The position numbers and the translations under genes were made by a program. Below are positions 11,204-51,300 of a DNA stretch of 64,000 nt, one piece after another. The DNA lies in NCBI GenBank assembly GCA_944363575.1, contig CALVUJ010000010.1, positions 19,817-83,816 of the forward strand. The letters are read 5' to 3'. This DNA comes from an uncultured Bacilli bacterium. GTDB lineage: Bacteria > Bacillota_I > Bacilli_A > RFN20 > DUOF01. The first letter of the stretch is position 1, and each line of letters begins with the position of its first letter. The notes beneath the pieces are model-generated. The model was not told the DNA's origin and did not search any database. It saw nothing but the letters and a program-made list of their open reading frames with translations.

Positions 11204-12940
11204 TTATATTATTTTTTTATCTTTTTTACTATAAGAAGTGTGTAATAATTCATGAGCTTTAGGTGAATGTGGATACTGTAAATATTTGCTGTATAATTCT
11301 TTTATTTGTGGATTGTTGTGTGATTGTCTAATATTCATCTTTTTATCTTCATCATATAGGGCTTTAGCTCTTTTGTAAGTATTAAATAAGATGTTGTCTT
11401 TTTCTTTTGTTTCTAGTTTAGATGATGTTATTTTTGGTTGCCCTGCACCATTTATACATCCTAAAGGACAAGCCATTACTTCAATGAAGTCGTATTTACT
11501 TGTTCCGTTTCTAATTTCATCTAGTACTTTACTAGCATTTGATAAGGAGTGAACTACGGCAACATTAACTTCATTACCATTTATATTTAAACTAGCTTCT
11601 TTTATTCCTTCACTTCCTCTTACATTTTCAAAACTTATTTTTTCATATTCTTGATTAGTTAGGGAGTAGTAAGCTGTTCTTAAGGCTGCTTCCATTACTC
11701 CTCCAGTTGTTCCAAAGATAACTCCTGCTCCAGAGAAATCGCCTAATAAGTCATTGTCAAATTTTTCATCTTCTAAGTCTTTAAAGTTAATACCAAATAG
11801 TTTTATTAGGTTAGCTAATTCTACGGTTGTTAAGACAATGTCTACATCGTTATCATTGCGATCTTTTTCTTCTTTTTTAGCACTACAAGGCATGATTGAT
11901 ACAACAACGATATCTTCTTTATTAATATTATTTATTTCAGCATAATATGATTTGATGATTGCTCCTTCCATCATGTGTGGAGATTTACATGTTGATAGGT
12001 GATTAAGTAGATCAGGGTAATAGTTTTCAGCATAGTTTATCCATCCTGGGCAACATGAGGTAATCATTGGTAAATTTTCTTTTTTTGTATATCTTTCTAT
12101 AAATTCAGTTGCCTCTTCCATGATGGTTAAGTCTGCACCAAAGTTAACATCATATACTTTACTGAAGCCTATTTGTTTTAGTGCTGATACCATTTTTCCT
12201 TCAACGTTAGTGCCGATAGGGTAATCAAATTCTTCCCCTAGGGCTGCTCTTATGGCTGGAGCTGTTTGAACAACAACATGTTTTCCTTCTTTTAGAGCTA
12301 CGAGTAAATCACGAATGTTTTCTTTAACCGTTAGAGCACCAGTAGGACATACTTTTGTACATTGGCCACAATAGGTGCATGGGACATCTTTAAATGATTT
12401 GTTAGCAACAGGGGCAACAATCGTTTTTAAACCTCTATTTTCAAAATCTAAAATACCTATGCCTTGAACTTTTTTGCACATTTCAATACATCTTCCACAT
12501 AAGATACATTTTGAAGTATCTCTAGTGAGAATTCCTGATAAGTCATCAATTGTTGTTTCTGTTTTTTGACCATGGTATCTTTCTGTTACATTTAGTTTTT
12601 TGGTTAAAGCTTGTAGTTCACAATTTTGGTTAGATGAACAATTTAAGCATTCTAAAGAATGATTAGAGATAATTAATTCTAAAGATTTTTTTCTAGCTTC
12701 AATTATTTCTAAAGTGTTAGTGAATATTTCCATTCCTTCATATATTTTGTTGTTGCATGCTGTTACATAGTTGCGGTTATTTTTTACTTCTACTAGACAT
12801 ACTCTGCAATTGCCTGATTGTACTAAATCTTTGTAGTGACATAGTGTGGGAATATCAATGTTTACTTTATGGCAGGCTTCAAGAATAGTTAAGCCTTCTT
12901 CAAAAGAGTATTCTTTATTATTTATTTTAATATTAATCAT
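11204..12940 (-). CDS. hydA: [FeFe]-hydrogenase catalytic subunit (HydA/HndD type) with an N-terminal 2Fe-2S ferredoxin-like domain and 4Fe-4S domains.
   Basis: H-cluster signatures TSCCPGW, IMPCSAKKEE and EVMACPLGCINGAGQP are present. ATG 12940 overlaps the hydB stop as ATGATTAA and is preceded by GGAGGTG. The ORF-track start at 12982 is upstream of this. Confidence 0.85.
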   Translation of the reverse strand: MINIKINNKEYSFEEGLTILEACHKVNIDIPTLCHYKDLVQSGNCRVCLVEVKNNRNYVTACNNKIYEGMEIFTNTLEIIEARKKSLELIISNHSLECLNCSSNQNCELQALTKKLNVTERYHGQKTETTIDDLSGILTRDTSKCILCGRCIEMCKKVQGIGILDFENRGLKTIVAPVANKSFKDVPCTYCGQCTKVCPTGALTVKENIRDLLVALKEGKHVVVQTAPAIRAALGEEFDYPIGTNVEGKMVSALKQIGFSKVYDVNFGADLTIMEEATEFIERYTKKENLPMITSCCPGWINYAENYYPDLLNHLSTCKSPHMMEGAIIKSYYAEINNINKEDIVVVSIMPCSAKKEEKDRNDNDVDIVLTTVELANLIKLFGINFKDLEDEKFDNDLLGDFSGAGVIFGTTGGVMEAALRTAYYSLTNQEYEKISFENVRGSEGIKEASLNINGNEVNVAVVHSLSNASKVLDEIRNGTSKYDFIEVMACPLGCINGAGQPKITSSKLETKEKDNILFNTYKRAKALYDEDKKMNIRQSHNNPQIKELYSKYLQYPHSPKAHELLHTSYSKKDKKII

Positions 12941-14804
12941 TGTTTTCACCTCCAGTGGTTTTTTCAATAGATTTGAAGGCACAGTTGCTCATACATAGTC
13001 CACATTTAATACATTTTTCAGGATCAATTTCAAATGGTTCTTTTCCAACTGTTCCAGAGATAGCATATACTGGGCAAAATCTAGCACATACACCACATTT
13101 ATGGCATTTTTCAGGGATAATATGGTATTTAATTAGTGATTTACAAACTTTAGCTCGACATTTATGTTCTTTAATATGTTCAAGATATTCTTCTTTGAAT
13201 TTATCTAAGGTAGATAAAACAGGATTAGGTGCACTTTGACCTAAACCACATAAGGAAGCTTTTTTTATGTAGTGAGCTAGTTTATCAAGTTCTTCTAGAT
13301 CACTTTCTTCTCCTTTTCCATCACTTATTTTTTCTAATAATTCTAGCATTCTAGTTGTTCCTATCCTACAAGGTGTACATTTACCGCATGATTCTTCGCA
13401 AATGAATTTTAAATAGAATTTTGCTACATCTATCATACAGTTATCTTCATCCATGACAATAATTCCTCCACTTCCCATCATGGAACCTTTGGCTAGTAGG
13501 CTATCAAAGTCAATTGGAGTATCTAAGTCTTCTTTAGTTAAGCATCCTCCACTTGGGCCTCCAGTTTGAATAGCTTTGAATTCCTTGTCATTAGCAATTC
13601 CTCCACCAATATCATAAATTAACTCTCTTAAGGTTGTTCCCATTGGTACTTCTACTAAACCGATGTTATTTACTTTACCGGCTAGTGCGAAAACTTTTGT
13701 TCCTTTAGATTTTTCTGTTCCAACACTTTTAAATCTTTCTACTCCACCTTCTTTTAAGATGAATGGTAAGTTTGCAAAAGTTTCAACATTGTTGATGATT
13801 GTTGGTTTTCCCCATAATCCTTTAATAGCAGGATATGGTGGTTTAGCGTTAGGCATTCCTCTTTTTCCTTCAATTGAAGCAATTAAAGCTGTTTCTTCTC
13901 CACATACGAAGGCTCCTGCTCCTAGTCTTATTTCAATATCAAAAGAGAAATTTGTTCCCATTATATTTTGTCCTAGTAGACCATATTCATACGCATCTTC
14001 AAGAGCTTTTTCTAATTTTTTAACAGCGCTTGGATATTCTGCTCTGATGTATACGTAACCTTTGCTAGCACCAATAGCATATCCTGCAATTATCATTCCT
14101 TCAATTACCGAATGTGGATTTCCTTCAAGAATGGCCCGATCCATGAAAGCACCAGGATCACCTTCGTCGGCATTACAAATGACATATTTTTTTTCATTTT
14201 GTTGGTTGTAGGCTGTTAACCATTTTTTACCAGTAGGGAAGCCTCCACCTCCTCTTCCTCTTAATCCTGATTCACTAACTTCTTCGATTACTTGTAAAGA
14301 AGTTAAAGAGGATAAACATCTTTTAAGTGCAGTATATCCTTTAATAGCAAAACATTCTTCAATTTTATGAGGATCAATGACACCACATCCATCTAGAGCA
14401 ATCTTTTTTTGCTTGTTATAGAAATCAATTAAGGAGATGTCTTTTGTTTTGTTGTAAAGTAGTCTTTCAACGATAACGTTATTTAATAAATGTGATTCAA
14501 AAATTTCAAAGATGTCTTGTTCTTTTACTTTGTGATAGGTAACGTTGTCAGGCATTATTTTTACAAAAGGTCCTTTAGAACAAAAACCGAAGCATCCAGT
14601 TAATTTTACTAAAAATCTATCTTGTAAATTTTTTTGATTAATAAGTAAATCAAATTTTTCTTTTAATTTTAAAGAATTGTTAGCAACACATCCAGAATCT
14701 CCACATATCAATATTACCTTTTTATTATCTTTAACTTCTTCTTTGAAAATATCTTGATTTTTAGTTATTTGTTCTTCAAATTGTTCAAAGTTATGAATTT
14801 TCAT
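12933..14804 (-). CDS. hydB: NuoF-like NADH-binding flavoprotein subunit of a multimeric hydrogenase (HydB/HndC). It has an N-terminal thioredoxin-like domain, an FMN/NADH site and C-terminal 2x[4Fe-4S] domains.
   Basis: Signature motifs GLRGRGGGGFPTGKKW, ESCGKCTPCR and CxxCxxCxxxCP x2 are present. Confidence 0.85.
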   Translation of the reverse strand: MKIHNFEQFEEQITKNQDIFKEEVKDNKKVILICGDSGCVANNSLKLKEKFDLLINQKNLQDRFLVKLTGCFGFCSKGPFVKIMPDNVTYHKVKEQDIFEIFESHLLNNVIVERLLYNKTKDISLIDFYNKQKKIALDGCGVIDPHKIEECFAIKGYTALKRCLSSLTSLQVIEEVSESGLRGRGGGGFPTGKKWLTAYNQQNEKKYVICNADEGDPGAFMDRAILEGNPHSVIEGMIIAGYAIGASKGYVYIRAEYPSAVKKLEKALEDAYEYGLLGQNIMGTNFSFDIEIRLGAGAFVCGEETALIASIEGKRGMPNAKPPYPAIKGLWGKPTIINNVETFANLPFILKEGGVERFKSVGTEKSKGTKVFALAGKVNNIGLVEVPMGTTLRELIYDIGGGIANDKEFKAIQTGGPSGGCLTKEDLDTPIDFDSLLAKGSMMGSGGIIVMDEDNCMIDVAKFYLKFICEESCGKCTPCRIGTTRMLELLEKISDGKGEESDLEELDKLAHYIKKASLCGLGQSAPNPVLSTLDKFKEEYLEHIKEHKCRAKVCKSLIKYHIIPEKCHKCGVCARFCPVYAISGTVGKEPFEIDPEKCIKCGLCMSNCAFKSIEKTTGGENND

Positions 14805-15285
14805 TCATTAAGACCTCCTTATCTTTATACTCTTTAATAATTTTATCAACATCTGCTATTTTTACATGGGGATATATTTTGCCATTTACGGTAACAACAG
14901 GTGCTAAAGAACAGGCTCCTACACACCTTAAGATATCAATAGAAAATAACCCATCTTCTGTTGTTTCTCCTGGTTTTATTTTTAATTTATTACAAAATTC
15001 ATCAATTATACCTTGAGTTCCTTTTACATAGCAGGCTGTTCCAAAACAAGTGCTAATAACATATTTTCCTTTAGGTTTTAAAGAGAAGTAAGAATAGAAA
15101 GTTACAACACCATATATTTCACTTACTGGTATATTAAGGGCTTCTGCTACTATTTGTTGTACTTCTAAATCAATGTATCCAAATTTATTTTGAATATCAC
15201 TTAATATCATCATTAATGGGGTTTCCATGTTTTTTCTTTTTTCTATAATATTGTATATTTCTTCTTTGCTTTTACTACTTATCAT
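14791..15285 (-). CDS. hydC: NuoE-like [2Fe-2S] subunit (HydC/HndA).
   Basis: The protein carries the thioredoxin-like ferredoxin signature CxxxxC...CxxxC (GTACYVKG...RCVGACSLAPV). Start ATG 15285 is preceded by GAGGTG. Confidence 0.8.
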   Translation of the reverse strand: MISSKSKEEIYNIIEKRKNMETPLMMILSDIQNKFGYIDLEVQQIVAEALNIPVSEIYGVVTFYSYFSLKPKGKYVISTCFGTACYVKGTQGIIDEFCNKLKIKPGETTEDGLFSIDILRCVGACSLAPVVTVNGKIYPHVKIADVDKIIKEYKDKEVLMNENS

Positions 15286-15305
15286 TAATAATTTCACCTC
15301 TTTTT

Positions 15306-21528: not shown

Positions 21529-21557
21529 TGACAAGTGTATAAAATAAAAGTAAAATA
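21529..21557 (+). promoter_or_regulatory. Sigma-A type promoter TTGACA-17-TAAAAT for the rplJL operon.
   Basis: The sequence matches the consensus exactly. Confidence 0.7.
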
Positions 21558-21564
21558 ATGATGC

Positions 21565-21700
21565 TTATTACCAAAGACAGCAACGGTCAAGGGACTTAAT
21601 AAGGTTGCCGAGGTGAACATGAATTGTTTATTTCCCTGTGTGCTTTTGGTAAGAATACAGGGTTTTTATTTGGGTAAGTAAGCTTATTATAAAAAAAGAA
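21565..21700 (+). promoter_or_regulatory. Ribosomal protein L10 leader with an intrinsic attenuator hairpin (CCCTGT...ACAGGG plus T5 at 21635-21668).
   Basis: A ~150-nt untranslated leader lies between the promoter and rplJ. It contains GACAGCAACGG and a terminator-like hairpin, the typical Firmicutes L10(L12)4 autoregulatory leader. Confidence 0.6.
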
Positions 21701-40099: not shown

Positions 40100-40417
40100 A
40101 TGAAAGAAATTATAATTACTAGTGAAGAGCAATTTGATGATGTTATTAGTAATGGTGTGTGTTTAGTTGATTTTTATGCTTCTTGGTGTGGCCCTTGTAA
40201 GATGTTAGCACCTTTTATTGAAGAGATTGCTAATGAGTATGATGGTAAGGCTGTCGTTTGTAAGGTTAATGTGGATGAAGTGGAGTCTTTAGCTTATAAG
40301 TATCAAGTGCGTTCTATTCCTACATTAGTGTATTTTAAAGATGGTAAGATGGTTGATGTTAGTGTTGGTTTTCAGGATAAGAAAACAATTACTGATACTT
40401 TAGAAAAATATTTATAA
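40100..40417 (+). CDS. trxA: Thioredoxin.
   Basis: The WCGPCK active site is present. RBS GGAGGAG is 9 nt upstream of ATG 40100. Confidence 0.9.
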   Translation: MKEIIITSEEQFDDVISNGVCLVDFYASWCGPCKMLAPFIEEIANEYDGKAVVCKVNVDEVESLAYKYQVRSIPTLVYFKDGKMVDVSVGFQDKKTITDTLEKYL

Positions 40418-42392
40418 ACTTTAATTTTTTAAAAAAACTTTTTATTTTTTGCATTATTTTTTGGAAGAAACTTTTTATTTTTTGAAAAAAGGTTTCTTTT
40501 TTTTGTTCGGTTACTATTTTTGGAGTTTGTTCAGTGTAAGTTTTAATCGTTATAGTAAAGTTAGAGTTTTCTAATTCATAGTTTATTTTATAAGTTCCTT
40601 CATTAGCATAATTAGGGGTGTAAGTGTCTTCTATTATAGTGTAGGGGGTAGTTAGGTTTATAATTGATGCGATAGTATCCATAGATAGAAGGTCTTTAGT
40701 AGAGACATACAAAATATTATCTTTTAAGGCGATAGAATCCACAAGATTTATTTCTATTTGAAAGATAGGGCTTTTATTATTAGAGGTATCAATGGTGCTT
40801 AATTGAATATAGTAAGTTCCAAGGGCTTGTGAGGCTGTGTAAGTGTCACTTTCAATAGTTATAGGTAAGTTTTGGTCGACATTATCTTTACTTTGATAGA
40901 GATTTAGTATTTCTTGGGTGGATGGTTTGTTTTTAAAAGAATAAGTTAGAGTTTGAACTCCTGTAATGTATGGGGAGACATCGTCAATATTTGTGATAGT
41001 TATTTTAAAGGGTTCACTAAGATTGTTTGAATGATCTTCTGTTTGAATAATTAAATAATATTTTCCTGTTTTATTTAAGTTATTGGTGTAAGTATCTTCG
41101 ATTATTTTTAAGTTATTATAAAGATTGATATCTACGTTATCTATAATTGTTAATTGTTGTTTTATGTAAGTTAATGATAGAGGAGAAGATAGGTATGAAT
41201 TGTAGGTGTCTAAGCCAAATATTTGGGGTGCAATATCATCTTCTAGTTTAATTTTTACTTCAAAGGGTAAGCTTACATTTTGATAATTATCCATGGCTTG
41301 AAAGATAATGCTTTTTTCTCCGATGGTGTTTAGATAATTAGAGTATAAATCTTTTTTTATGTAAATAGAAGAAGAGATGTCTTGATGGTTATCGTGGGCT
41401 GTAAGGGAGTACATGATTTGTTCAATAGTTAGGGGATTAGATAGTTTAGAAGTGAAATAGTTTGTTCCTTCAATAATAGGGGGAATATCATCTTTTACTT
41501 CAATAGTTACTTGATAAGGATTAGAAAGATTAGAAGAAAAATCATAAACACAAAAATACAGGCTATAGAAACCAACGTTATTTTTATTAATAGAGTAATT
41601 GTCAGTACAAGGATATAGTTGTGATTCTAGGTTAGTGTTTACGTTATCTTTAACAGTTAACTGTTCTTGAATAGCTTCAATAGTAAGAGGGGAAGACAAA
41701 TAAGAAATAAAATTATTTTTTCCTTCTATAATCGGTGGAGAATTATCGATTATTTCAATACTAATATTAAGAGAGTTTTTGTTATTTGCAGAATCTTTAA
41801 CACTTAAAATGATTAGGTGTGTTCCTAGTGTTTTGTTATTAGAATAATCATCATATTCTATTACTATATTTTTAGTAAGATTTCCTTCTCTTTCATCATA
41901 AGCATGAATATTATTTAAAATAATGTTTAAGTCAAGTGGGTTATTGATGTTAGTAGTGTATTTTTCTTTATATCCTTTGAAGATAGGTGGTTCTTCATCT
42001 AGAATTTTAGAGTATCCTTTAATGATTGAGTTATTAGTGTTAAATTTAGCATTTAAAAAGATATCTTCATTACTAATGGTGTAAGAAGTTTTAGAGTAGT
42101 CTACGAGTAAAGAGTTTCCTAAAGGATAGTCTGGGGCTACTATTGTTACTTTAATGTTTTCACATTTAGTTAAGCTATCGATATAAGTTTCTTCTTTTTC
42201 ATAGCTAATTGTGGGCATTATAGTAGAGATGTCTACTTCTTTTTTTACTTTATAAAAATAGAAGGGGAGTTCAATAGTGTCTTTTAATTCATCGTTTTCA
42301 AAGATATTGCAATATTCTTTAGCAGACACAGTTTGGTTAGTTAGTAGAAAAAAGAGTATAATAATAGAAATGTATAATATTTTTTTTAGCAT
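40389..42392 (-). CDS. Secreted repeat protein (667 aa). Signal peptide, then at least five ~95-aa Ig-like modules beginning D-x-x-P-P-I-I-E-G.
   Basis: Signal peptide MLKKILYISIIILFFLLTNQTVSA. The repeats are seen in the translation. The low-complexity C-terminus (FFQKIKSFF..) is encoded by terminator-like A/T repeats and overlaps the trxA 3' end by 29 bp. Confidence 0.6.
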   Translation of the reverse strand: MLKKILYISIIILFFLLTNQTVSAKEYCNIFENDELKDTIELPFYFYKVKKEVDISTIMPTISYEKEETYIDSLTKCENIKVTIVAPDYPLGNSLLVDYSKTSYTISNEDIFLNAKFNTNNSIIKGYSKILDEEPPIFKGYKEKYTTNINNPLDLNIILNNIHAYDEREGNLTKNIVIEYDDYSNNKTLGTHLIILSVKDSANNKNSLNISIEIIDNSPPIIEGKNNFISYLSSPLTIEAIQEQLTVKDNVNTNLESQLYPCTDNYSINKNNVGFYSLYFCVYDFSSNLSNPYQVTIEVKDDIPPIIEGTNYFTSKLSNPLTIEQIMYSLTAHDNHQDISSSIYIKKDLYSNYLNTIGEKSIIFQAMDNYQNVSLPFEVKIKLEDDIAPQIFGLDTYNSYLSSPLSLTYIKQQLTIIDNVDINLYNNLKIIEDTYTNNLNKTGKYYLIIQTEDHSNNLSEPFKITITNIDDVSPYITGVQTLTYSFKNKPSTQEILNLYQSKDNVDQNLPITIESDTYTASQALGTYYIQLSTIDTSNNKSPIFQIEINLVDSIALKDNILYVSTKDLLSMDTIASIINLTTPYTIIEDTYTPNYANEGTYKINYELENSNFTITIKTYTEQTPKIVTEQKKETFFQKIKSFFQKIMQKIKSFFKKLKFINIFLKYQ

Positions 42393-42503: not shown

Positions 42504-43469
42504 ATGCCGTCAGTTTTGACTCATTATGGTTTTAATAAAGAATTATTTAATGATAAAATTGGTTTTTTAAAGGGGAACGAGGATATTTATTTAGTTGGTG
42601 CTCAAGGGCCTGATCCTTTTTTCTTTTATGGTATATTGCCTTTTGTTAAAGCAAAGGATGCTAAGGTTATTAGAGGATATGGAAGTAAACTTCATAAGAT
42701 GGATCCTATGAAGGTGTTTTTGTTCTTTTTTAAGTTTGCTAATGATAGTGTTGATAAAGATGTTTTATATGCTTATATATTAGGGGCAGGGTTGCATTAT
42801 ATATTGGATAGAAAAATACATCCGTATGTTTTTTATAAGACAGGATTTAGTGATGATCCTAAGATGAAGAGAAAGTATTTTACTAATCATACTTTATTTG
42901 AAACAAATATAGATGTTTTGTTAATGAATGGGAGATATAAGAATTATAAGGTAAAGCCTGTAGAAGCTATTTTATGTGATGATGATAAGATAGAGGAAGT
43001 TAGTGAAATGTATGAGAAGTTGGCTAGAGAAGTAGTTAAGGAAGAGAAGATAAATGATGATAGTTTTGAGGATGCTTGGGAGCATATGATAAAGATTGAG
43101 AAAGTTTTGTATAGTAAGAAAGGAATTAAAAAAGGGATTGTTAATTGTTTGTTTAAGAAGACGCCTTTTAATACGATGATGCATCCTTTGAAAGTTAAAG
43201 ATGATTTGAAAATAGATTATCTTAATTTAAGGAATAATGAGTGGTTTGATCCAGCGATGGAAGTTAAGTATTATAAGAGTGTTATTAGTTTGATTGAGGA
43301 AGCTAAGGAAGATAGTAAGGAATGGTTTAAGATAGTAGAGGATGCTTATAATGGGAAAATTAAAGATAATGTGATTAAAAAGTTTACTAGAGGTATGATT
43401 TATGATGGTTATAATGATACAATGAAGATGAAAGTGTTTAAGAATGTTTATGAAAGGGGTAATAGTTGA
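42504..43469 (+). CDS. Zinc-dependent phospholipase C-like family protein, putative.
   Basis: GLHYILDRKIHPYV resembles the PC-PLC zinc-ligand block LHYLGDVNQPMH, and HYGF/PDPFFFY are candidate ligands. The stop overlaps the rnfC start. Confidence 0.4.
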   Translation: MPSVLTHYGFNKELFNDKIGFLKGNEDIYLVGAQGPDPFFFYGILPFVKAKDAKVIRGYGSKLHKMDPMKVFLFFFKFANDSVDKDVLYAYILGAGLHYILDRKIHPYVFYKTGFSDDPKMKRKYFTNHTLFETNIDVLLMNGRYKNYKVKPVEAILCDDDKIEEVSEMYEKLAREVVKEEKINDDSFEDAWEHMIKIEKVLYSKKGIKKGIVNCLFKKTPFNTMMHPLKVKDDLKIDYLNLRNNEWFDPAMEVKYYKSVISLIEEAKEDSKEWFKIVEDAYNGKIKDNVIKKFTRGMIYDGYNDTMKMKVFKNVYERGNS

Positions 43470-44773
43470 TGATTATTAGTTCAAAGGGTAAAAAACATCT
43501 TGATGGGCATAAAGAGTTGACAGCACATAAAGAAGTGTTAGATTTAACTAATGATAAAGATGTGTGTGAAGAGATTTATGTTCCAGTAGTAGCTCCAAAT
43601 GGTAAAGAGATGGAAGTGCTTGTTAAAGAGAAAGATGTGGTTAATGTTGGGACGATGTTATGTAAGCGATTAGATTTCTATGTACCTGTTTATTCTAGTG
43701 TAAGTGGAGTAGTTAAGGGTATGAAGAGTATGTATAATAGTGCTTTAGGTAAAGTTTGCGATCATTTAGTAATAGAAAATGATTTTAAGTATAGTGAGAA
43801 ATTATTAAAGAAAGTTGATTATAAAGAAACTAGTAAAGAAGAGTTATTAGAGTTAGTTAAAGAATCGGGGATAGTTGGTTTAGGTGGGGCAGGTTTTCCT
43901 ACTTATGTTAAGTATTCTTCAGATGCTAAGATTAATAGTATTTTAGTAAATGGGGTAGAATGTGAGCCTTATCTTACAACTGATTATGTAACAATGAAAA
44001 AGGAATACTCTTATTTATTAGAAGGTTGTGAGATTTTAAGAAAGATTAGTGAGGCAAATGAGGTTGTTATTGCTTTTAAGAATAATAAAAAAGATTTAAA
44101 AGAGTTATTAGATAAAGAATTAGTTAATTATCCTGGTATTAGGGTAGTTGAAGTTAAAGATAAGTATCCAATGGGTTGGGAAAAAGCGTTGGTTAAAGCA
44201 GTGTTTAAAAAGAATTATGATAAGTTACCTAGTGAAGTGGGGGTTATTGTTAATAATGCTCAAACGATTATTAGTGTGGCTAAGGCTATTATTGATGGGG
44301 AAGTTATTAGTAAAAGGGTGATTACTGTTAGTGGGGATGCTGTTAATCCTTGTAATGTTTTAGTTCCTACTTTTACTTTAGCTAAAAATATTTTAAATAA
44401 ATGTGGATATTTAGAGGAGGAAGTTTGTGTCTTAGCAGGTGGGCCTATGACTTCTAAAGCTAATGTTAGTGATGAATTTTGTTTACAAGTTAATATGGGT
44501 GCTTTAACGGTAATGAAGAAGAGGAAGTATGATACTTTGCCTTGTTTAGGATGTGGTAAGTGTGTTGAGAATTGTCCAGCAGGTATACAACCTATTCAAA
44601 TTAAGAAGGCTTTTGATAATAAGGATTTAAAGGAGTTAGAAGCTTTTGAGTGTAGTAAATGTGTAGAATGTGGGATGTGTTCTTTTGTGTGTCCTTCTAA
44701 GATTGAGTTAACAGATGATATTAGAAGAGCTAAGTTATATATTCGTTTAAGTCGTAGTAAGGAGGTAAAATAA
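43469..44773 (+). CDS. rnfC: Rnf complex subunit C.
   Basis: The GLGGAGFPT nucleotide site and two 4Fe-4S motifs (CLGCGKCVENCP and CSKCVECGMCSFVCP) are present. Confidence 0.85.
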   Translation: MIISSKGKKHLDGHKELTAHKEVLDLTNDKDVCEEIYVPVVAPNGKEMEVLVKEKDVVNVGTMLCKRLDFYVPVYSSVSGVVKGMKSMYNSALGKVCDHLVIENDFKYSEKLLKKVDYKETSKEELLELVKESGIVGLGGAGFPTYVKYSSDAKINSILVNGVECEPYLTTDYVTMKKEYSYLLEGCEILRKISEANEVVIAFKNNKKDLKELLDKELVNYPGIRVVEVKDKYPMGWEKALVKAVFKKNYDKLPSEVGVIVNNAQTIISVAKAIIDGEVISKRVITVSGDAVNPCNVLVPTFTLAKNILNKCGYLEEEVCVLAGGPMTSKANVSDEFCLQVNMGALTVMKKRKYDTLPCLGCGKCVENCPAGIQPIQIKKAFDNKDLKELEAFECSKCVECGMCSFVCPSKIELTDDIRRAKLYIRLSRSKEVK

Positions 44774-46287
44774 TGAAGTTTTCGTTAGCAAAGGGTCCTT
44801 TTTTAAGAAGTAAGAGAACTACAACAGGGATAATGTTAGAGTTATTTGCTGTTTTGGTGGTTGTGTGGCTTACTTCAGTAGTAGCATATAGTGTTCGTTT
44901 TAATTTTTTAGTAGGGTTAAGGGCTATTTTATTAGTGCTTGTTTCTTTATTTACAACAATTGTTATTGATGTTTTAATGGCTTTAGTAAAGGGTAAAAGA
45001 AGTATTAAAGATATAAGTAAGTTTGTTTTAACTAGTTATAGTTATGTTACTTCAATTATTTTTACTTTATGTTTACCTGTAGGGGTTAGTTATTATGTGG
45101 TTGTTATAGGTTCAATAGTAGCTACTTTGCTAGGTAAGTATGTGTTTGGTGGCTTTGGTTATAATGTTTTTAATCCGGCGATTATTGGTAGAATATTTGT
45201 AGGGTTAGCTTTTGGAAGTAGCATGAAGTATGGTATTGAAAGTTCTATGAGTAATAGTGCTAGTTATGATTTTGTTAGTGGGGCTACTGTTACTGGTAGT
45301 ATTAACTGGGCACAGGGAACTATTCCAGAAGGGTTTGATTGGAAAACTTTACTTTTTGGTAATTATAATGGTGCGATGGGTGAGACATATACGCTTTTGT
45401 TACTAGTAGCAGGTATTTATTTGATTATTAGAGGAATTATTAATTATCGAATAGTGTTAAGTTATTTAGTGACTGTAAGTGGTATTAGCTTATTTTTAGG
45501 TTTGTTTTATGGGGTAAGTAATGTTTTTAGTTATACTTTATTGCATTTAGTTACAGGTGGTTTAATGTTTGGGGCAGTCTTTATGATTACTGATCCTGTG
45601 ACTAGTCCTAAGGCTATGAATGGGAAAATTATTTATGGTATTGGGGCAGGTTTTTTAACGATGCTTATTAGGGTTAATTCTTCTTATCCAGAAGGTGTTA
45701 TGTATTCAATTGCTTTAATGAATATGTTTACTCCTTTGATTGATAGTTGTATTAAAGGAAATACATTTAGTAAAGTAGGTGTTAAATGGGCTGTAATTGC
45801 TAGCTTTTTGGTAGGTTCCATTGGTCTTAGTGTTGGGTTTAATGCTTTGTATCCTTTAAAAGAAGGTCAAGGGGAAAACGAGGATCCAAATGCTTGGATG
45901 AGTAATTATGCGGTTGAGAAGATTGATGATAATACGTATACCGTTAGTAGTAAAGGATTTTATGATGATATAAAGATGAAAGTATATGTTGATAAAGAAA
46001 AGGAAATTATTACGCAAGTTGAATTAATTGAGTATAGTGATCATGAATTAACTAATATATATGTGGAAGGAATATATGGTTATTCAGGGTATGATAAGAT
46101 AATTGGTAATAATCTTAATTTGTCTTTTTCAGAATTTGATAATTTTAATTGTGATAATATGTGTACTAATACTGGGGCTAGTACTAGTTTTGATGTAGAG
46201 AGTGGGGCTACTTATACTACAGGTGCTCTTATAGGAAACTTAAAGGCTGTTGTAGAAACGGTTAGGGGAGGTGTAAGTAATGGATAA
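44773..46287 (+). CDS. rnfD: Rnf subunit D with an extra C-terminal FMN_bind domain.
   Basis: The NqrB/RnfD core has the flavinylation motif DFVSGATVTG. An additional ~140-aa C-terminal domain ends with FDVESGATYTTGAL, the FMN_bind SGAT motif. The protein is 504 aa versus about 330 typical. Confidence 0.8.
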   Translation: MKFSLAKGPFLRSKRTTTGIMLELFAVLVVVWLTSVVAYSVRFNFLVGLRAILLVLVSLFTTIVIDVLMALVKGKRSIKDISKFVLTSYSYVTSIIFTLCLPVGVSYYVVVIGSIVATLLGKYVFGGFGYNVFNPAIIGRIFVGLAFGSSMKYGIESSMSNSASYDFVSGATVTGSINWAQGTIPEGFDWKTLLFGNYNGAMGETYTLLLLVAGIYLIIRGIINYRIVLSYLVTVSGISLFLGLFYGVSNVFSYTLLHLVTGGLMFGAVFMITDPVTSPKAMNGKIIYGIGAGFLTMLIRVNSSYPEGVMYSIALMNMFTPLIDSCIKGNTFSKVGVKWAVIASFLVGSIGLSVGFNALYPLKEGQGENEDPNAWMSNYAVEKIDDNTYTVSSKGFYDDIKMKVYVDKEKEIITQVELIEYSDHELTNIYVEGIYGYSGYDKIIGNNLNLSFSEFDNFNCDNMCTNTGASTSFDVESGATYTTGALIGNLKAVVETVRGGVSNG

Positions 46288-46804
46288 AAGATTAATTAAA
46301 TATCCCCTTATTTTAGGGTTAGTGGCACTAGTGGCAGGGCTTTTATTAGCTTTAGTTTATAACGTTACAGCACCTGTGATTGAAAAAAATAAGAATAAAA
46401 GAGAGAATGCGATTGTTTTAGAAATGTATGGTGATGATGCTAAAATTGAGGATATTAGTGATACTTTAAAAGAAGAGGAGACTAGTAAGGGTATTTATGC
46501 CGTTTTAAAAGTAACAAGTGATGGTAATGATTATTATGTTTATAAAATAAATGTTAAAGATGCTTTTGATGGTGATGAGAGTTCGTTTGCTGTTGGTATT
46601 AGTGATGGTAAGATTTCTAAGTTAAAGTTTGTTTCAACGGGGGATAGTTATGCTGGGATGTATTCCACAGGGGATTTTTCTAGTGCAATAACTGGTAAAA
46701 GTGAAGTTAGTGATAGTGATGTAGTGACAGGAGCAACTAAAACAGGAGAGCCTATTATTGAAAGTATACAGGCATCTTTAGGGCATTATGGGAGGAATAA
46801 ATAA
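46280..46804 (+). CDS. rnfG: Rnf subunit G (FMN-binding).
   Basis: An N-terminal TM helix and the motif DVVTGATKTGE are present. Confidence 0.8.
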   Translation: MDKRLIKYPLILGLVALVAGLLLALVYNVTAPVIEKNKNKRENAIVLEMYGDDAKIEDISDTLKEEETSKGIYAVLKVTSDGNDYYVYKINVKDAFDGDESSFAVGISDGKISKLKFVSTGDSYAGMYSTGDFSSAITGKSEVSDSDVVTGATKTGEPIIESIQASLGHYGRNK

Positions 46805-47490
46805 TGAAAAGTAGAGAAATTTTTAAAGAGGATATTTTTACTAAGAATCCAATATTTGTTTTATTACTAGGGTTATGTTCGTCATTAGCGATTACAACTT
46901 CAATAGATAATGCGATAGGGATGACGGTTGCTTTTACGTTAGTTTTAATTTGTTCTAATGTGCTTATTTCCTTGCTTAGAAAGGTTATTCCTGCAGAGAT
47001 ACGTTTACCTATTTTTATTATTATAATTGCTACTTTTGTAACTTGTGTTACCTTGCTTGCAGAAGCATATTCTTTCCATATTTATGAGTCACTTGGTGTT
47101 TTTCTACCTCTTATTACAGTCAATTGTATTGTTTTAGGTAGAGCAGAGGCTTTTGCTAGTAAACATAATCCATGGGAGAGTTTTTTAGATGGGTTAGCAA
47201 CAGGAATTGGTTTTGGGTTAGCTTTAATTAGTATTGCTTTTATTAGAGAGTTTTTAGGAACAGGTAATATTGTTTTACATAGTTTGTTTACGAATAAAGA
47301 GTATTTTAATTTAATGAAGTTATTGCATTTAGAAGAGTTTAGTTCATCATTTAAGATTTCTATTTTAACTACAGGAGTAGGAGCTTTCTTAGTTTTAGGT
47401 TTACTGATAGCTTTATTTAATTACATTTCTTATAAAAAGCAAGAAAAGAAAAAAGTTAGTGAAGTAAAGGAGGGAGAAGTAAATGCTTAG
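46804..47490 (+). CDS. rnfE: Rnf subunit E.
   Basis: Polytopic membrane protein of the RnfE/NqrD family in its order-conserved position. Confidence 0.8.
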   Translation: MKSREIFKEDIFTKNPIFVLLLGLCSSLAITTSIDNAIGMTVAFTLVLICSNVLISLLRKVIPAEIRLPIFIIIIATFVTCVTLLAEAYSFHIYESLGVFLPLITVNCIVLGRAEAFASKHNPWESFLDGLATGIGFGLALISIAFIREFLGTGNIVLHSLFTNKEYFNLMKLLHLEEFSSSFKISILTTGVGAFLVLGLLIALFNYISYKKQEKKKVSEVKEGEVNA

Positions 47491-48058
47491 TTATCTTAGT
47501 TTAGCGATAGGGGCTATTTTAGTTAGCAATATTGTGTTAGTACAATTTTTAGGTATTTGTCCTTTTTTAGGGGTTAGTAAGAAAAAATCAAGAGCTTTTG
47601 GAATGGGTGTTGCTGTTATAGCAGTAGTCTTTTTATCTTCTGTTATTACATATGGGTTATATAAGTTAGTTTTAGTTCCTTTAGAAATTGAGTATACTCA
47701 AACACTTATCTTTATTTTAGTTATTGCTTCTTTAGTGCAATTTACCGAATTATTAATTAAGAAATATTTTCCTAGTTTATATAAGGATTTTGGAATTTAT
47801 TTGCCTTTGATTACGACAAATTGTGTTGTTTTGGGTGTTACTTTAAATAATATTATTTATGATTATAATTTCTTAGAAATGTGTGTTTATTCTTTGTCTG
47901 TTTCAATAGGTTATTTATTAGTTATCTTTATTTTTTCTTCAATTAGAGAGAGACTTGAAAGTGCTCCTATTCCTAAAGCATTTAAGGGAGTTCCTATTGC
48001 TTTGATTGTAGCAGCTTTTATGGCTTTAGCTTTTAGTGGATTTTCAGGTATTGTATGA
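47483..48058 (+). CDS. rnfA: Rnf subunit A.
   Basis: RnfA/NqrE family. Confidence 0.8.
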   Translation: MLSYLSLAIGAILVSNIVLVQFLGICPFLGVSKKKSRAFGMGVAVIAVVFLSSVITYGLYKLVLVPLEIEYTQTLIFILVIASLVQFTELLIKKYFPSLYKDFGIYLPLITTNCVVLGVTLNNIIYDYNFLEMCVYSLSVSIGYLLVIFIFSSIRERLESAPIPKAFKGVPIALIVAAFMALAFSGFSGIV

Positions 48059-48219
48059 TGAATTATTTGTATGCGGTTATAGTGGTAGGAGTTTTGGTGG
48101 CTATTTTCATTTTAAGTTATTATTTGAATGGTAAAGTGAAAGTAGAGTGTGATGATGAAGAGTTATGTGAAGGGTGTAAGGTTACAAATTGCTTTAAAAG
48201 GAAAAGTAAGGAGGAATAA
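48058..48219 (+). CDS. Unannotated 53-aa membrane peptide. One TM helix followed by a Cys-rich tail (C-x5-C-x2-C-x4-C).
   Basis: The translation is MNYLYAVIVVGVLVAIFILSYYLNGKVKVECDDEELCEGCKVTNCFKRKSKEE. The ATG overlaps the rnfA stop, and the stop overlaps the next start. Absent from the ORF track because it is shorter than 60 aa. Confidence 0.4.
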   Translation: MNYLYAVIVVGVLVAIFILSYYLNGKVKVECDDEELCEGCKVTNCFKRKSKEE

Positions 48220-48542
48220 TGATGGATTTTGTTAATGTTATAGTAGCAGGTTTGATTATTTTAGGTATTGCTTTAGTGTTAGGGTTAGGTTTAGCAATAG
48301 CGAATAAATATTTTGAAGTAGAAGATGATAACAAGTTAGAAGAGATAGAGCTTATTTTGCCTGGTTATAATTGTGGAGCTTGTGGGTATGTTAGTTGTGA
48401 TGAAATGGCTAAGGCTATTTTAAATGGGGAAGTAGATAGTTCTAGGGCTTGTAAAGTTATTACGGACGATAATGCTAGGAAGTTAAGGGAGTATTGTAAG
48501 AAAATTAAAAATAACAAGGGTGAAATAATTAATTTAAAGTAG
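48219..48542 (+). CDS. rnfB: RnfB N-terminal module only (TM helix plus CxxCxxxxC...C Fe-S domain). The polyferredoxin domains are missing.
   Basis: PGYNCGACGYVSCDEMAKAILNGE...RACKV matches the RnfB N-terminus. The protein is 107 aa versus about 260-330 expected. Strong RBS AAGGAGG. Confidence 0.65.
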   Translation: MMDFVNVIVAGLIILGIALVLGLGLAIANKYFEVEDDNKLEEIELILPGYNCGACGYVSCDEMAKAILNGEVDSSRACKVITDDNARKLREYCKKIKNNKGEIINLK

Positions 48543-48555
48543 TGAAGGTGATAAG

Positions 48556-49743
48556 GTGAAGAAGTTATTTATAGTTATAGTAATATTTGTTTGTTTGATT
48601 AGCGGGTGTAGTTGTAAGCAAGATTATGAGAAGACTTCTATTTATTCTTCTAGTGTTAGAGGGTATTTAACTGCTAGTGATTTAGATTATACGGTAGTAG
48701 ATCCTTTTGGGACTTATCTTAATATTGTAGGGTATGATGAGGAGAAGGTTTTAGGTGTTGAAGAGGAGTTTAATGAGTTAACTAGTAAGTATCATGGGTT
48801 ATTAGATCGTAATTATTATTATAGAGATGAAAAGGGTGTTTTAATTAATAATCTTAAAGTTATTAATGATAGTTATGGTAGTGGTGATAGTGTAATCGTA
48901 GATGATATTTTAATAGAAATTTTAAAAGAAGGTATTAAATATACTAAGTTATCTAATGGGAAGTTTAATATTTTTGTTGGTTCTTTGGTGGATCTTTGGG
49001 ATGAAAGATTTAGTTTTCTTAGTCCTTTATATAAGGTTGATCCTAGTGATAACGAAGTAAGTGAAGCAATGAAATGTGTGTTGAAGGTTAGTGATATTGA
49101 TGAAACTTTTATTATTGATGAAGTTAATAAGAGTGTTACTTTTAAGAAGTTTGGCGAGTGTAGTGAAGGGGCTTCAATTACTTTTGGGGCATTAGGTAAG
49201 AGTTTCTTTTTAGATAAGTTAGTAGGGGAAGAGTCTTTTAAAGATATTGGACCAAGTATATTTAATGCTGGGCAATCAAGTATTATTGTTATGGGAGATA
49301 ATCCTATTAGGAGTGGTGGAGATTGGCATGTAGCGATTAAAAACAGTTATAATGATGATAATTATTTAGCACAGTTAAAGATTGATGGTGGTTTGGCTGT
49401 TTCTACTTCAAGTGGGGATGAAAAGGGATATGTAAATAATGAAAATGTTTTTAGGCATCATATTTTAGATGGTACGAGTGGGTATCCTAATACATATGTA
49501 CTTTCGGCAACAGTAGTGGGGGAGAGTGCAATGGTTATGGATGTTGTTACAACAACACTTATGACTTTAACAAATTTAGAAGAAGTTAAAGCCTTTCTTA
49601 ATTTATTAGGAGAAGATATTAGCGTTTTACTACAAGTGATGGAAGGGGATACTTTTAAGGTTTATATTAATGAAAGTATGAAAAATATTGTTTTAGATAA
49701 TTATAGTTTAATGGAGTTTGAGGAGTTTTCTTATGGAGCTTAA
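48556..49743 (+). CDS. apbE: FAD:protein FMN transferase (ApbE family) lipoprotein.
   Basis: Lipobox LISGC|SC. ApbE-like motifs GALGKSF, AVSTSSGDEKGY and HHILDGTSGYP are present. Confidence 0.75.
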   Translation: MKKLFIVIVIFVCLISGCSCKQDYEKTSIYSSSVRGYLTASDLDYTVVDPFGTYLNIVGYDEEKVLGVEEEFNELTSKYHGLLDRNYYYRDEKGVLINNLKVINDSYGSGDSVIVDDILIEILKEGIKYTKLSNGKFNIFVGSLVDLWDERFSFLSPLYKVDPSDNEVSEAMKCVLKVSDIDETFIIDEVNKSVTFKKFGECSEGASITFGALGKSFFLDKLVGEESFKDIGPSIFNAGQSSIIVMGDNPIRSGGDWHVAIKNSYNDDNYLAQLKIDGGLAVSTSSGDEKGYVNNENVFRHHILDGTSGYPNTYVLSATVVGESAMVMDVVTTTLMTLTNLEEVKAFLNLLGEDISVLLQVMEGDTFKVYINESMKNIVLDNYSLMEFEEFSYGA

Positions 49744-50131
49744 GCATAATAAGTATGATTTTATTATTTATGGTGTGTGTCTTGTTTTGATTGTGTGTTT
49801 GTTAGTTATTTCTAATGTTGTTACGAGTAAAGCTAAGGGTGATATTTTGTATGCGATTGTTACGATTGAGGGTAAGCAAAAGTTTAAGTTAGATATGAAT
49901 GAAGATAGGGAGTTAGTTTTAAGTCCTGAGGAGTATCCTAGTTTGTTAGGAGAAATGATTATTGAGATTAAAGATAAGAAAGTTAGGGTTAAGAAAGAAG
50001 AGTCTCCTTTACATTATTGTTCAATGCAAAGTTGGGTTGATAGTGTAGCAGTTCCAATTGTTTGTTTGCCTAATGAAGTCATTATTACGATTAAAGGTGA
50101 ACAGATTCCTGAAAATGATTGGGAGATGTGA
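49733..50131 (+). CDS. NusG domain II-containing (DUF1312) protein.
   Basis: N-terminal TM helix plus a small beta domain. It has the typical partnership with ApbE and the Gx transporter. Start ATG 49733 is 7 nt after GAGGAG. Confidence 0.55.
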   Translation: MELKHNKYDFIIYGVCLVLIVCLLVISNVVTSKAKGDILYAIVTIEGKQKFKLDMNEDRELVLSPEEYPSLLGEMIIEIKDKKVRVKKEESPLHYCSMQSWVDSVAVPIVCLPNEVIITIKGEQIPENDWEM

Positions 50132-50134
50132 TTT

Positions 50135-50653
50135 ATGAATAAGAAGACAAATAAGATGGTTAAAATGGCTTTGCTACTAGCAATGGCTTTAGTTATCAAT
50201 TATTTAGAATCATTAGTTCCTTTACCTATTCCTATGCCTGGTGTTAGGTTGGGGCTTGCCAATTGTTTAGGGTTAGTGGTTCTTTGTTTGTATAGTGAAA
50301 AAGATTATGTTATTTTTAATGTTTTAAAGGTTGTTCTAGTGGCTTTGCTTAGAACGGGATTTGGTTCATCTTTTTTTATTGGATTAAGTGGGACCTTGCT
50401 TGCTACTATTTTTACTTTATTAACTTATAAGTTTAGTAAAGCTTCTATATATGGGTTATCAGTAGTAGGAGCTGTGTTTCATGCGTTAGGGCAAGTTTTA
50501 ATGGTAATGCTTTTATATAGTAATGTGTATATGATTAATTATTTAGTTGTATTAGAAGTTACTAGTGTTATTAGTGGGCTTCTTACAGCATTTGTTGCGA
50601 GTGTTACGTTGCTTAAATTGCCTAAAAAGATGGTGGAAAATAGTAGATCATAA
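50135..50653 (+). CDS. Gx transporter family protein (heptaprenyl diphosphate synthase component I-like).
   Basis: Small polytopic protein with the Gx motifs, in the conserved ApbE-DUF1312-Gx arrangement. Confidence 0.55.
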   Translation: MNKKTNKMVKMALLLAMALVINYLESLVPLPIPMPGVRLGLANCLGLVVLCLYSEKDYVIFNVLKVVLVALLRTGFGSSFFIGLSGTLLATIFTLLTYKFSKASIYGLSVVGAVFHALGQVLMVMLLYSNVYMINYLVVLEVTSVISGLLTAFVASVTLLKLPKKMVENSRS

Positions 50654-50686
50654 TATAATGATTTGGTTGTTAATGGAGGTGTGTGT

Positions 50687-50932
50687 ATGGAAAAATATGA
50701 GTTTGTACCAAAGGGTGTTTGTTGTAGGAAGATGGTTGTTAGTGTAGATAATGGTATTGTAAGGGATGTAGAGTTTATTGGTGGGTGTCCTGGTAATACT
50801 TTAGGTATTGCATCTTTAATTAAGGGAATGAAAATAGAGGAAGTTGTTAGTAAGTTAGATGGAATTAAGTGTGGGTTTAAAAAGACTTCTTGTCCTAATG
50901 AGCTTGCTAAATTTTTAAAAGATATAAAATAA
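50687..50932 (+). CDS. TSCPD domain protein (TIGR03905-like).
   Basis: The motif GIKCGFKKTSCPNELAKFL is present. RBS GGAGGTG is 7 nt upstream of ATG 50687. Confidence 0.6.
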   Translation: MEKYEFVPKGVCCRKMVVSVDNGIVRDVEFIGGCPGNTLGIASLIKGMKIEEVVSKLDGIKCGFKKTSCPNELAKFLKDIK

Positions 50933-50982: not shown

Positions 50983-51177
50983 ATGGAAGAAAGAAAAAGA
51001 AGACAAATGAAGTTAGCTAATTTATTTTTAGAGATGGGAATGGATGTTGAGTTGATTGAAAAGATTTCTGGAGTTTCTAAAAAAGAGTTTCTAAATAAAG
51101 AGGAAATTTTGGATGTTCCATTGACATTGATAAATAAGCATAGTAATATGTGTGTAGAAAATAAAAACTCTTATTAA
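50983..51177 (+). CDS. Small hypothetical ORF (64 aa) inside the metK leader region. Possibly not translated.
   Basis: ORF only; weak RBS. Confidence 0.2.
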   Translation: MEERKRRQMKLANLFLEMGMDVELIEKISGVSKKEFLNKEEILDVPLTLINKHSNMCVENKNSY

Positions 51178-51300
51178 GATTTACGTAGGTATAGGGGCCG
51201 TTAAACGTAAGAGCAACCCAAGATATTGAAGGTGCTAACCCAAGCATGTCTAACATGAGCAATAGGAGGAAGTTAATACTGATGATAAACTTCCTTGAAA
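51168..51300 (+). promoter_or_regulatory. Probable SAM-I (S-box) riboswitch upstream of metK.
   Basis: The S-box-like blocks CTTATTAAGA, GCAACC, AAGGTGCTAACCCAAGCA and GATGATAA are present. A hairpin GGAAGTT..AACTTCC lies before the metK RBS. metK is the canonical S-box target in Firmicutes. Confidence 0.45.

Follow-up and report, generated by a model that had tools for sequence, protein, structure and literature searches.

The rnf operon and its short rnfB gene

The stretch analysed (the window; 64,000 nucleotides (nt) of contig CALVUJ010000010.1, assembly GCA_944363575.1, positions 19,817 to 83,816 of the forward strand, from an uncultured Bacilli bacterium) carries an operon for an Rnf complex in which rnfB is unusually short and is preceded by a gene for a small membrane protein with a cysteine motif, denoted X. 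The genes rnfC-D-G-E-A-X-B-apbE-NusG_II-PF07456 are co-directional and tightly packed (Table 1), and no terminator was found inside the operon. The curated TIGRFAM cut-offs were passed by RnfC, RnfE and RnfA; the translations of the last two hold two membrane cysteines each (LGICP and TTNC in RnfA; LGLCS and TVNC in RnfE), that of RnfD holds the flavinylation-type motifs DFVSGAT and DVESGAT, and the divergent RnfG scored 38.9 against TIGR01947 (cut-off 102). A complete Rnf core is thus encoded by the operon.

Table 1. Genes and sites of the window (positions are those of the window; aa, amino acids; TM, transmembrane; FMN, flavin mononucleotide)
Feature	Positions	Strand	Length, aa	Matches and remarks
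rnfC	43466–44773	+	435	RnfC_N, Nuo51-type FMN/NADH domain, SLBB, 2×[4Fe-4S]; TIGR01945 313 bits (cut-off 246)
rnfC, Fer4 motifs	44543 and 44660	+		
rnfD	44773–46287	+	504	PF03116 263 bits; extra C-terminal FMN_bind domain, PF04205 28.6 bits
rnfD, extra FMN_bind domain	45955–46254	+		residues 395–494
rnfG	46280–46804	+	174	divergent; FMN_bind PF04205 22.8 bits (cut-off 22); flavinylation-type motif VVTGATKT
rnfE	46804–47490	+	228	TIGR01948 226.5 bits (cut-off 213.4)
rnfA	47483–48058	+	191	TIGR01943 233.9 bits (cut-off 229.3); TGA stop at 48058
X (small Cys-motif membrane protein)	48055–48219	+	54	alternative start at 48058 (53 aa)
X, TM helix	48058–48132	+		residues 2–26
X, Cys tail	48148–48192	+		
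rnfB (short)	48219–48542	+	107	alternative start at 48222 (106 aa, the database form)
rnfB, PF04060 domain	48357–48455	+		cluster ligands C52, C55, C60, C78
apbE (flavin transferase)	48556–49743	+	395	lipoprotein-type N-terminus; PF02424 113.8 bits
NusG domain II membrane protein	49718–50131	+	137	PF07009 72.6 bits; same position in relatives
Hpre_diP_synt_I / ECF-S-like membrane protein	50135–50653	+	172	PF07456 111 bits; same position in relatives
hydA, hydB, hydC ([FeFe] hydrogenase type)	11204–15297	−	592, 623, 168	HydA: Fe_hyd_lg_C, Fer2_4, Fer4; HydB: Nuo51-type, NADH_4Fe-4S, Fer4; HydC: 2Fe-2S thioredoxin-like
TSCPD-domain protein	50663–50932		89	several Cys; downstream of the rnf cluster
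S-adenosylmethionine (SAM, S-box) riboswitch	51168–51268			upstream of metK
Ribosomal protein L10 leader	21553–21677			
Secreted protein	40389–42392	−	667	many repeated Ig-like segments ('...DNxxPxIxG...')

A preliminary description of this DNA, made from the letters alone, had read the rnfB product as a TM helix and a cysteine cluster module without ferredoxin domains, and this was borne out. The protein matched PF04060 only (46.6 bits, cut-off 23; residues 47–74); no Fer4-family match was found at E ≤ 0.1, and the gene contains no CxxCxxCxxxCP motif. The score against TIGR01944 (53.6) lay under the cut-off of 68.7, because just positions 4–86 of the 190 in that profile were matched. Alignment was obtained to residues 2–76 of Acetobacterium woodii RnfB (9eri_B, E 2.8e-11), and also to RnfB of C. 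tetanomorphum and A. vinelandii. The AlphaFold model (mean predicted local distance difference test, pLDDT, 86.5) matched the RnfB fold: its TM helix (residues 2–32, pLDDT ≈90) aligned with that of 9eri_B, and its soluble domain superposed on the [4Fe-4S] domain of the corrinoid iron-sulfur protein (CFeSP) with a root-mean-square deviation of 1.6–1.8 Å. All four cluster ligands were invariant in 33 homologs; the PF04060 domain is followed by a tail of 28 aa that ends KNNKGEIINLK. The short RnfB is a TM anchor with a flexibly tethered single-[4Fe-4S] domain, and the polyferredoxin module is gone. Neither a second rnfB nor a stand-alone ferredoxin was found in the 64-kb window, where Fer4 motifs occur in RnfC, HydA and HydB only.

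The short RnfB in relatives

With the short RnfB as query, a search of 5.8 billion proteins gave 62 related clusters (100% down to 38% identity), nearly all of 105–106 aa and matching PF04060 only. Contigs of relatives at 61%, 44–49% and 31–38% RnfB identity carried rnfC-D-G-E-A, a small open reading frame (ORF; 53–70 aa), a short rnfB (105–111 aa), apbE, NusG_II and PF07456 genes. With the RnfB alignment as query, a scan of GTDB genomes, one for each species, yielded 80 loci: 72 – complete rnf operons in C-D-(G)-E-A-B order, RnfB 93–112 aa; 5 – Spirochaetia operons, normal RnfB of 259–282 aa; 3 – Brevinematales, a protein of 93–99 aa with TM helix and PF04060 outside any rnf operon. The 72 short-RnfB operons belong to Erysipelotrichaceae, Erysipelothrix, Solobacterium, Coprobacillus, Izemoplasmatales (two complete genomes included) and Acholeplasmataceae, and to many uncultured gut 'Bacilli/Mollicutes' metagenome-assembled genomes.

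The ratio of nonsynonymous to synonymous substitution rates (dN/dS), a rough measure here as dS was about 1 and near saturation, was 0.14–0.25 for rnfB in pairwise comparison of the closest relatives of the window and 0.16–0.70 for X. In the independent Logan assembly ERR4096492 the 54-aa and 107-aa genes were identical to those of the window, residue for residue, which rules out a sequencing error; apbE starts 13 nt downstream of rnfB, so that no frameshift could restore a longer RnfB, a repair for which the preliminary description had wished the sequence to be re-checked. It had also named decay of the operon as one of two possibilities, and had stated that the same short RnfB in the operons of close relatives would speak against decay. 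Such a gene is what these operons hold: relatives from 80% down to 31–38% RnfB identity keep an RnfB of 93–112 aa in complete operons under purifying selection. By this comparison the absence of the polyferredoxin module is an inherited and maintained lineage trait and not decay, and the operon type is the standard one of a large Bacilli clade (Erysipelotrichaceae, Izemoplasmatales, Acholeplasmataceae and uncultured gut 'Bacilli/Mollicutes').

The three Brevinematales genes (L063, L074 and L075, at about 6965–7264 of each locus) were excluded as short RnfB, being orphans among unrelated genes with no rnf gene nearby; they indicate that membrane-anchored single-cluster proteins exist outside Rnf too. 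Near-identical rnf loci of Erysipelotrichaceae type were also met in bins labelled Methanomethylophilaceae (an archaeon), Agathobacter, Paratractidigestivibacter, Acutalibacteraceae and Oscillospiraceae (L025, L031, L033, L038, L042 and L059); all come from one 'cleanbin' project and are most likely mis-binned contigs.

Other parts of the operon vary among the relatives. The RnfD extension (an extra C-terminal TM segment and FMN_bind domain, motif DVESGATYT) recurs in L001 (RnfD 498 aa) and L090 (622 aa) and is absent from L002 and L004 (375–378 aa); L087 and L088 have a 464-aa gene at the rnfG position. The trio of apbE, NusG_II and PF07456 genes lies directly 3' of rnfB in the distant relatives L001, L004 and L087 also, and in part at the contig end of L002 and at other loci.

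The small protein X

Between rnfA and rnfB the preliminary description had placed a 53-aa ORF with one TM helix and a C-x5-C-x2-C-x4-C tail, overlapping both neighbours, and this ORF was confirmed. Its product, MMNYLYAVIVVGVLVAIFILSYYLNGKVKVECDDEELCEGCKVTNCFKRKSKEE, consists of one hydrophobic helix followed by C32-x5-C38-x2-C41-x4-C46. The frame overlaps the rnfA stop by 4 nt (ATGA), or by 1 nt from the alternative start, and its TAA stop shares one base with the rnfB ATG (TAATG). At this base composition the chance of a 54-codon open frame is about 0.006 for one genome. AlphaFold predicted the helix with confidence and left the Cys tail unfolded (pLDDT <50), the helix alone being predicted. 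No Pfam or NCBIfam match was obtained for the window protein, and a PDB sequence search with the X profile gave TM-helix noise only (e.g. PsbT). The statement that the ORF is unannotated held in part: the exact 54-aa protein (P0076) is already called in NCBI, ENA and Logan data, with neither name nor family, and its relatives are entered as 'hypothetical protein'.

Among the 72 species-level operons the rnfA-rnfB spacing fell into two classes: type a – 141–250 nt, 39 loci; type b – ≤12 nt, with no ORF, 33 loci. An X-type ORF of 49–82 aa was present in all 39 type-a loci, on one plan: short N-terminus, one TM helix, a basic linker resembling 'LNKKTPxPxGCE', then C-x2-C-x4-C (C-x2-C-x5-C in L049, the exception among type-a loci); the window and the metagenome loci share this plan, with lengths up to 101 aa. 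In 29 of 38 loci the X start and the rnfA stop have one base in common, which indicates that its translation is coupled to that of rnfA.

In an exhaustive HMMER search, 1.84 billion representatives yielded 412 family members at E ≤ 1e-3, of which 93 reached E ≤ 1e-10; lengths of 49–101 aa, without fusion to another domain, were seen in all of the best 150, and the distant members P0170 and P0242 are once more encoded between rnfA and a short rnfB. C-x2-C-x4-C was present in 205 of 215 distinct members and C-x2-C-x5-C in 8; a further Cys stands 4–10 residues upstream in 166 members and is lacking in 49. The last three cysteines are hence near-invariant in the sequences compared and the first is variable. 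Lysine plus arginine averaged 0.17 before the helix vs 3.2 in the 15 residues after it; by this positive-inside bias the Cys tail is expected to be cytoplasmic, like the cluster domain of RnfB, and X is predicted to be a single-pass protein with the N-terminus out and the C-terminus in. Conservation on this scale marks X as a real gene family.

In a neighbour-joining tree of RnfA, which carries no support values, the type-b operons form one clade nested among those of type a, which suggests that the ancestor of the short-RnfB clade had X and that a single loss followed. No RseC-like or other Cys-motif membrane ORF was found within ±7 kb of the type-b operons. The preliminary description had also considered that RnfB might be split. 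A split in which the missing part is encoded next door is not supported: X carries no ferredoxin-type motif, and the 33 type-b species loci have a short RnfB without X. One X homolog (P0209, on L089, 344–586) has an unrelated N-terminus in the place of the TM helix, and the neighbouring gene was judged by eye to be heptosyltransferase-like (a glycosyltransferase); the contig (1.36 kb, 1.2× coverage) is probably chimeric.

Elsewhere in the window, the position of the SAM riboswitch makes it probable that the 412-aa ORF, called from 51246, has its start further downstream, and the counterpart of the 667-aa secreted protein in L001 gave a faint Bact_surface_Ig-like match.

Electron entry and comparison with known systems

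In the solved Rnf complexes the tethered [4Fe-4S] domain of RnfB shuttles electrons to the [2Fe-2S] centre of RnfA/E (PMC12174285). The reading that we favour, and hold to be reasonably probable, is that the operon of the window is intact and of the standard type of its clade, that the minimal RnfB is inherited, that X is a conserved RseC-like Fe-S or metal protein located at RnfB, and that ferredoxin docks on the mini-RnfB or on RnfB together with X. On this proposal X would bind an Fe-S cluster or a metal through its three fixed cysteines at the cytoplasmic face of the membrane and would contact RnfB, acting like RseC; reduced ferredoxin would dock directly on the mini-RnfB or on an RnfB-X surface, which would replace the built-in polyferredoxin. 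That the organism uses ferredoxin chemistry follows from the HydABC-type hydrogenase encoded in the window; electron-bifurcating hydrogenases have this set of subunits, which implies ferredoxin-linked H2 metabolism. The C-terminal tail of RnfB bears the motif '...(P)xxG-x2-3-[ILV]-x-[ILV]...' in 35 of 39 operons with X and in none of the 33 without, and this co-variation is the sole comparative hint of a contact between X and RnfB.

Several points weigh against this proposal. The tail association amounts to about one evolutionary event, since the RnfA tree groups type b in a single clade, and four type-a loci lack the tail motif. X is dispensable in the 33 type-b loci, which keep the short RnfB, and so is not essential for the minimal design; this makes it an accessory protein and not a replacement for the polyferredoxin. 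Cluster binding by X is conjecture, because 49 of the 215 members have three cysteines and AlphaFold leaves the tail unfolded. The window X matched the Pfam family RseC_MucC (PF04246) at E 4.4 and 7.7 bits only (cut-off 24.4), and this family was matched by 4 of 144 X members (best E 0.073); profile-profile alignment (hhalign) of X with RseC gave 7–9% over 19 columns, the 7% coming from an RseC homolog profile that is not diverse, as the 120 sequences listed are enterobacterial only. The dN/dS values of rnfB and X are as rough as stated above, and the functions assigned to X and to the short-RnfB complexes are deduced from sequence.

A bolder version, possible but doubtful, would set up a 'minimal-input' class of Rnf in Erysipelotrichales, Izemoplasmatales, Acholeplasmatales and related gut Bacilli, in which X would be a subunit with a single TM helix and a C-x2-C-x4-C Fe-S site, would form the electron entry together with the mini-RnfB, and would descend from an ancient duplicate of the RnfB N-terminus or be a miniaturised RseC; if true, it would give RseC-type proteins a structural role in Rnf.

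It appears unlikely that X is instead a maturation factor of the NqrM kind for the Fe-S centre of RnfA/RnfE and not a subunit. NqrM (DUF539, PF04400) is a maturation factor of Na+-NQR with a single TM helix and conserved cysteines, is encoded beside apbE, and is required for insertion of the Fe-S centre that lies in the membrane between NqrD and NqrE (PMC12174285, PMC6209661). X is built alike, with one TM helix and three or four cysteines, and its gene belongs to the operon of the homologous complex and is separated by one gene from apbE, itself a maturation factor; its loss in one clade would suit a helper that general Fe-S machinery can replace. The resemblance is one of architecture only: the Cys spacing differs, NqrM is reported with NQR and not with Rnf, and PF04400 appeared neither in the tables of the window X, at E ≤ 0.1 or at E ≤ 10, nor among the 25 Pfam families matched most often by the 31-member and 144-member sets. 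We know of no canonical Rnf that needs an NqrM-like factor; further details of NqrM were reportedly described by Kostyrko et al. in 2016. A pure RnfA/E chaperone would moreover leave the change of the RnfB tail alongside the loss of X unexplained.

Quite unlikely, in our estimate, is a redox-active seventh subunit that arose by duplication of the RnfB N-terminus and serves as the first acceptor of electrons from ferredoxin or flavodoxin in place of the polyferredoxin. The preliminary description had seen in X a degenerate or duplicated RnfB N-terminus, and the layout does mirror it: X has the topology of RnfB, its gene adjoins rnfB, and hhalign of X against the RnfB N-terminus gave probabilities of 66%, 92% and 73.5% depending on the alignments, TM helix on TM helix and CxxCxxxxC on CGACGYxxC; 2 of 144 members also matched TIGR01944 weakly (best E 0.007). 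When the parts were aligned apart, the signal fell to 15% (TM helix) and 7% (tail), and for this reason homology of X and RnfB is not claimed; the signal may come from composition and a short motif, and common descent is plausible. X lacks an equivalent of the fourth PF04060 Cys, the conservation of type-b operons suggests that they function without X, and nothing points to a stable cluster on X.

A complex uncoupled from ferredoxin, which would pass electrons of NADH outward to extracytosolic flavoproteins or acceptors, is very improbable. One-directional NQR/RNF-like systems have been described (PMC8238504), RnfD of the window has an extra C-terminal FMN_bind domain, and the apbE, NusG_II and PF07456 genes are co-operonic; against this, the cytoplasmic entry half (RnfA, RnfE and the [4Fe-4S] domain of RnfB) is conserved under selection, many relatives with a short RnfB lack the extra RnfD domain, and a ferredoxin-dependent hydrogenase is encoded nearby. 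Decay or artefact, i.e. an rnfB pseudogene, a frameshift or assembly error and a spurious frame X, could be argued from the unusual gene lengths alone and the TIGR01944 score under its cut-off, and is dismissed as practically nil in view of equal lengths in 72 species-level operons, purifying selection, the identical second assembly, the 13-nt gap to apbE, the invariant cysteines and a frame kept in 39 of 39 gap loci and in the other gap-bearing loci.

What was found is a variant of the known Rnf system with a candidate accessory subunit that no database names, and not a new kind of system. Full-text literature searches returned no description of X or of an RnfB without the ferredoxin domain, in Mollicutes and Erysipelotrichia included, and the Izemoplasma genome papers list only 'RNF complex'; the short-RnfB variant is apparently undescribed. 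RnfB's C-terminal domain, with two to seven [4Fe-4S] clusters, is regarded as the ferredoxin acceptor in a review of 2025 (PMC12174285), and here the selected operons of a whole Bacilli clade, from common gut Erysipelotrichaceae to free-living Izemoplasmatales, do without it; hence in this clade ferredoxin either docks directly on the tethered domain with its one cluster or is received by another component. The short-RnfB operons thereby offer a natural minimal system for locating the entry of electrons into Rnf. Annotators should not mark a short RnfB as truncated in these taxa and should include the small ORF among the called genes.

Compared with canonical RnfB/RsxB (TIGR01944; solved structures 7zc6, 8ahx and 9eri), the RnfB of the window has the same N-terminal TM helix followed by PF04060 with C-x2-C-x4-C-x17-C, and its gene is likewise the last in the rnfCDGEAB order; the entire C-terminal ferredoxin-type domain is missing, leaving 107 aa and one cluster vs 174–333 aa and three to eight clusters in the solved proteins. 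X, for its part, resembles the FeoB-associated Cys-rich membrane protein (PF12669) in size (about 50 aa), N-terminal TM helix and C-terminal Cys-rich tail. Among the weak Pfam matches this family was met most often (51 of 144 X members at E ≤ 1, best 8.8e-6); ten individually inspected members scored ≤16 bits (cut-off 27), and the window X gave no match. Unlike PF12669, X has an rnf context, never feoB, in all contexts examined except the probably chimeric L089. To our knowledge PF12669 has no established function, so that the match explains little.

The best-supported analogue of X is RseC. The N-terminal domain of RseC is cytoplasmic, and its CX5CX2CX5C motif, in which the last three cysteines are conserved and the first is not, gives rise in vitro to a [4Fe-4S] cluster that is sensitive to O2; two-hybrid assays showed interaction of RseC with both RsxB and RsxD (PMC11729352). 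Directly upstream of rnfC, rseC is found in C. ljungdahlii, C. autoethanogenum, C. carboxidovorans and C. kluyveri, and C. ljungdahlii cannot grow autotrophically without it (PMC9124969). X is likewise a small membrane protein tied to Rnf, with a motif predicted to lie on the cytoplasmic side and a variable first Cys before three conserved ones. The E. coli motif reads SC20DVKASC26SSC29ASRAGC35G, i.e. C-x5-C-x2-C-x5-C, and the last spacing is one residue shorter in most X members (C-x5-C-x2-C-x4-C in the window). The order of parts differs: RseC (about 135–160 aa) begins with the motif and its domain, followed by two TM helices and a C-terminal domain, whereas X (49–101 aa) has one TM helix before the motif; X is encoded between rnfA and rnfB, RseC upstream of rnfC. 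X is accordingly not stated to be an RseC, but it may work like one, and the parallel makes the role of RseC with Rnf/Rsx approachable in a simpler protein.

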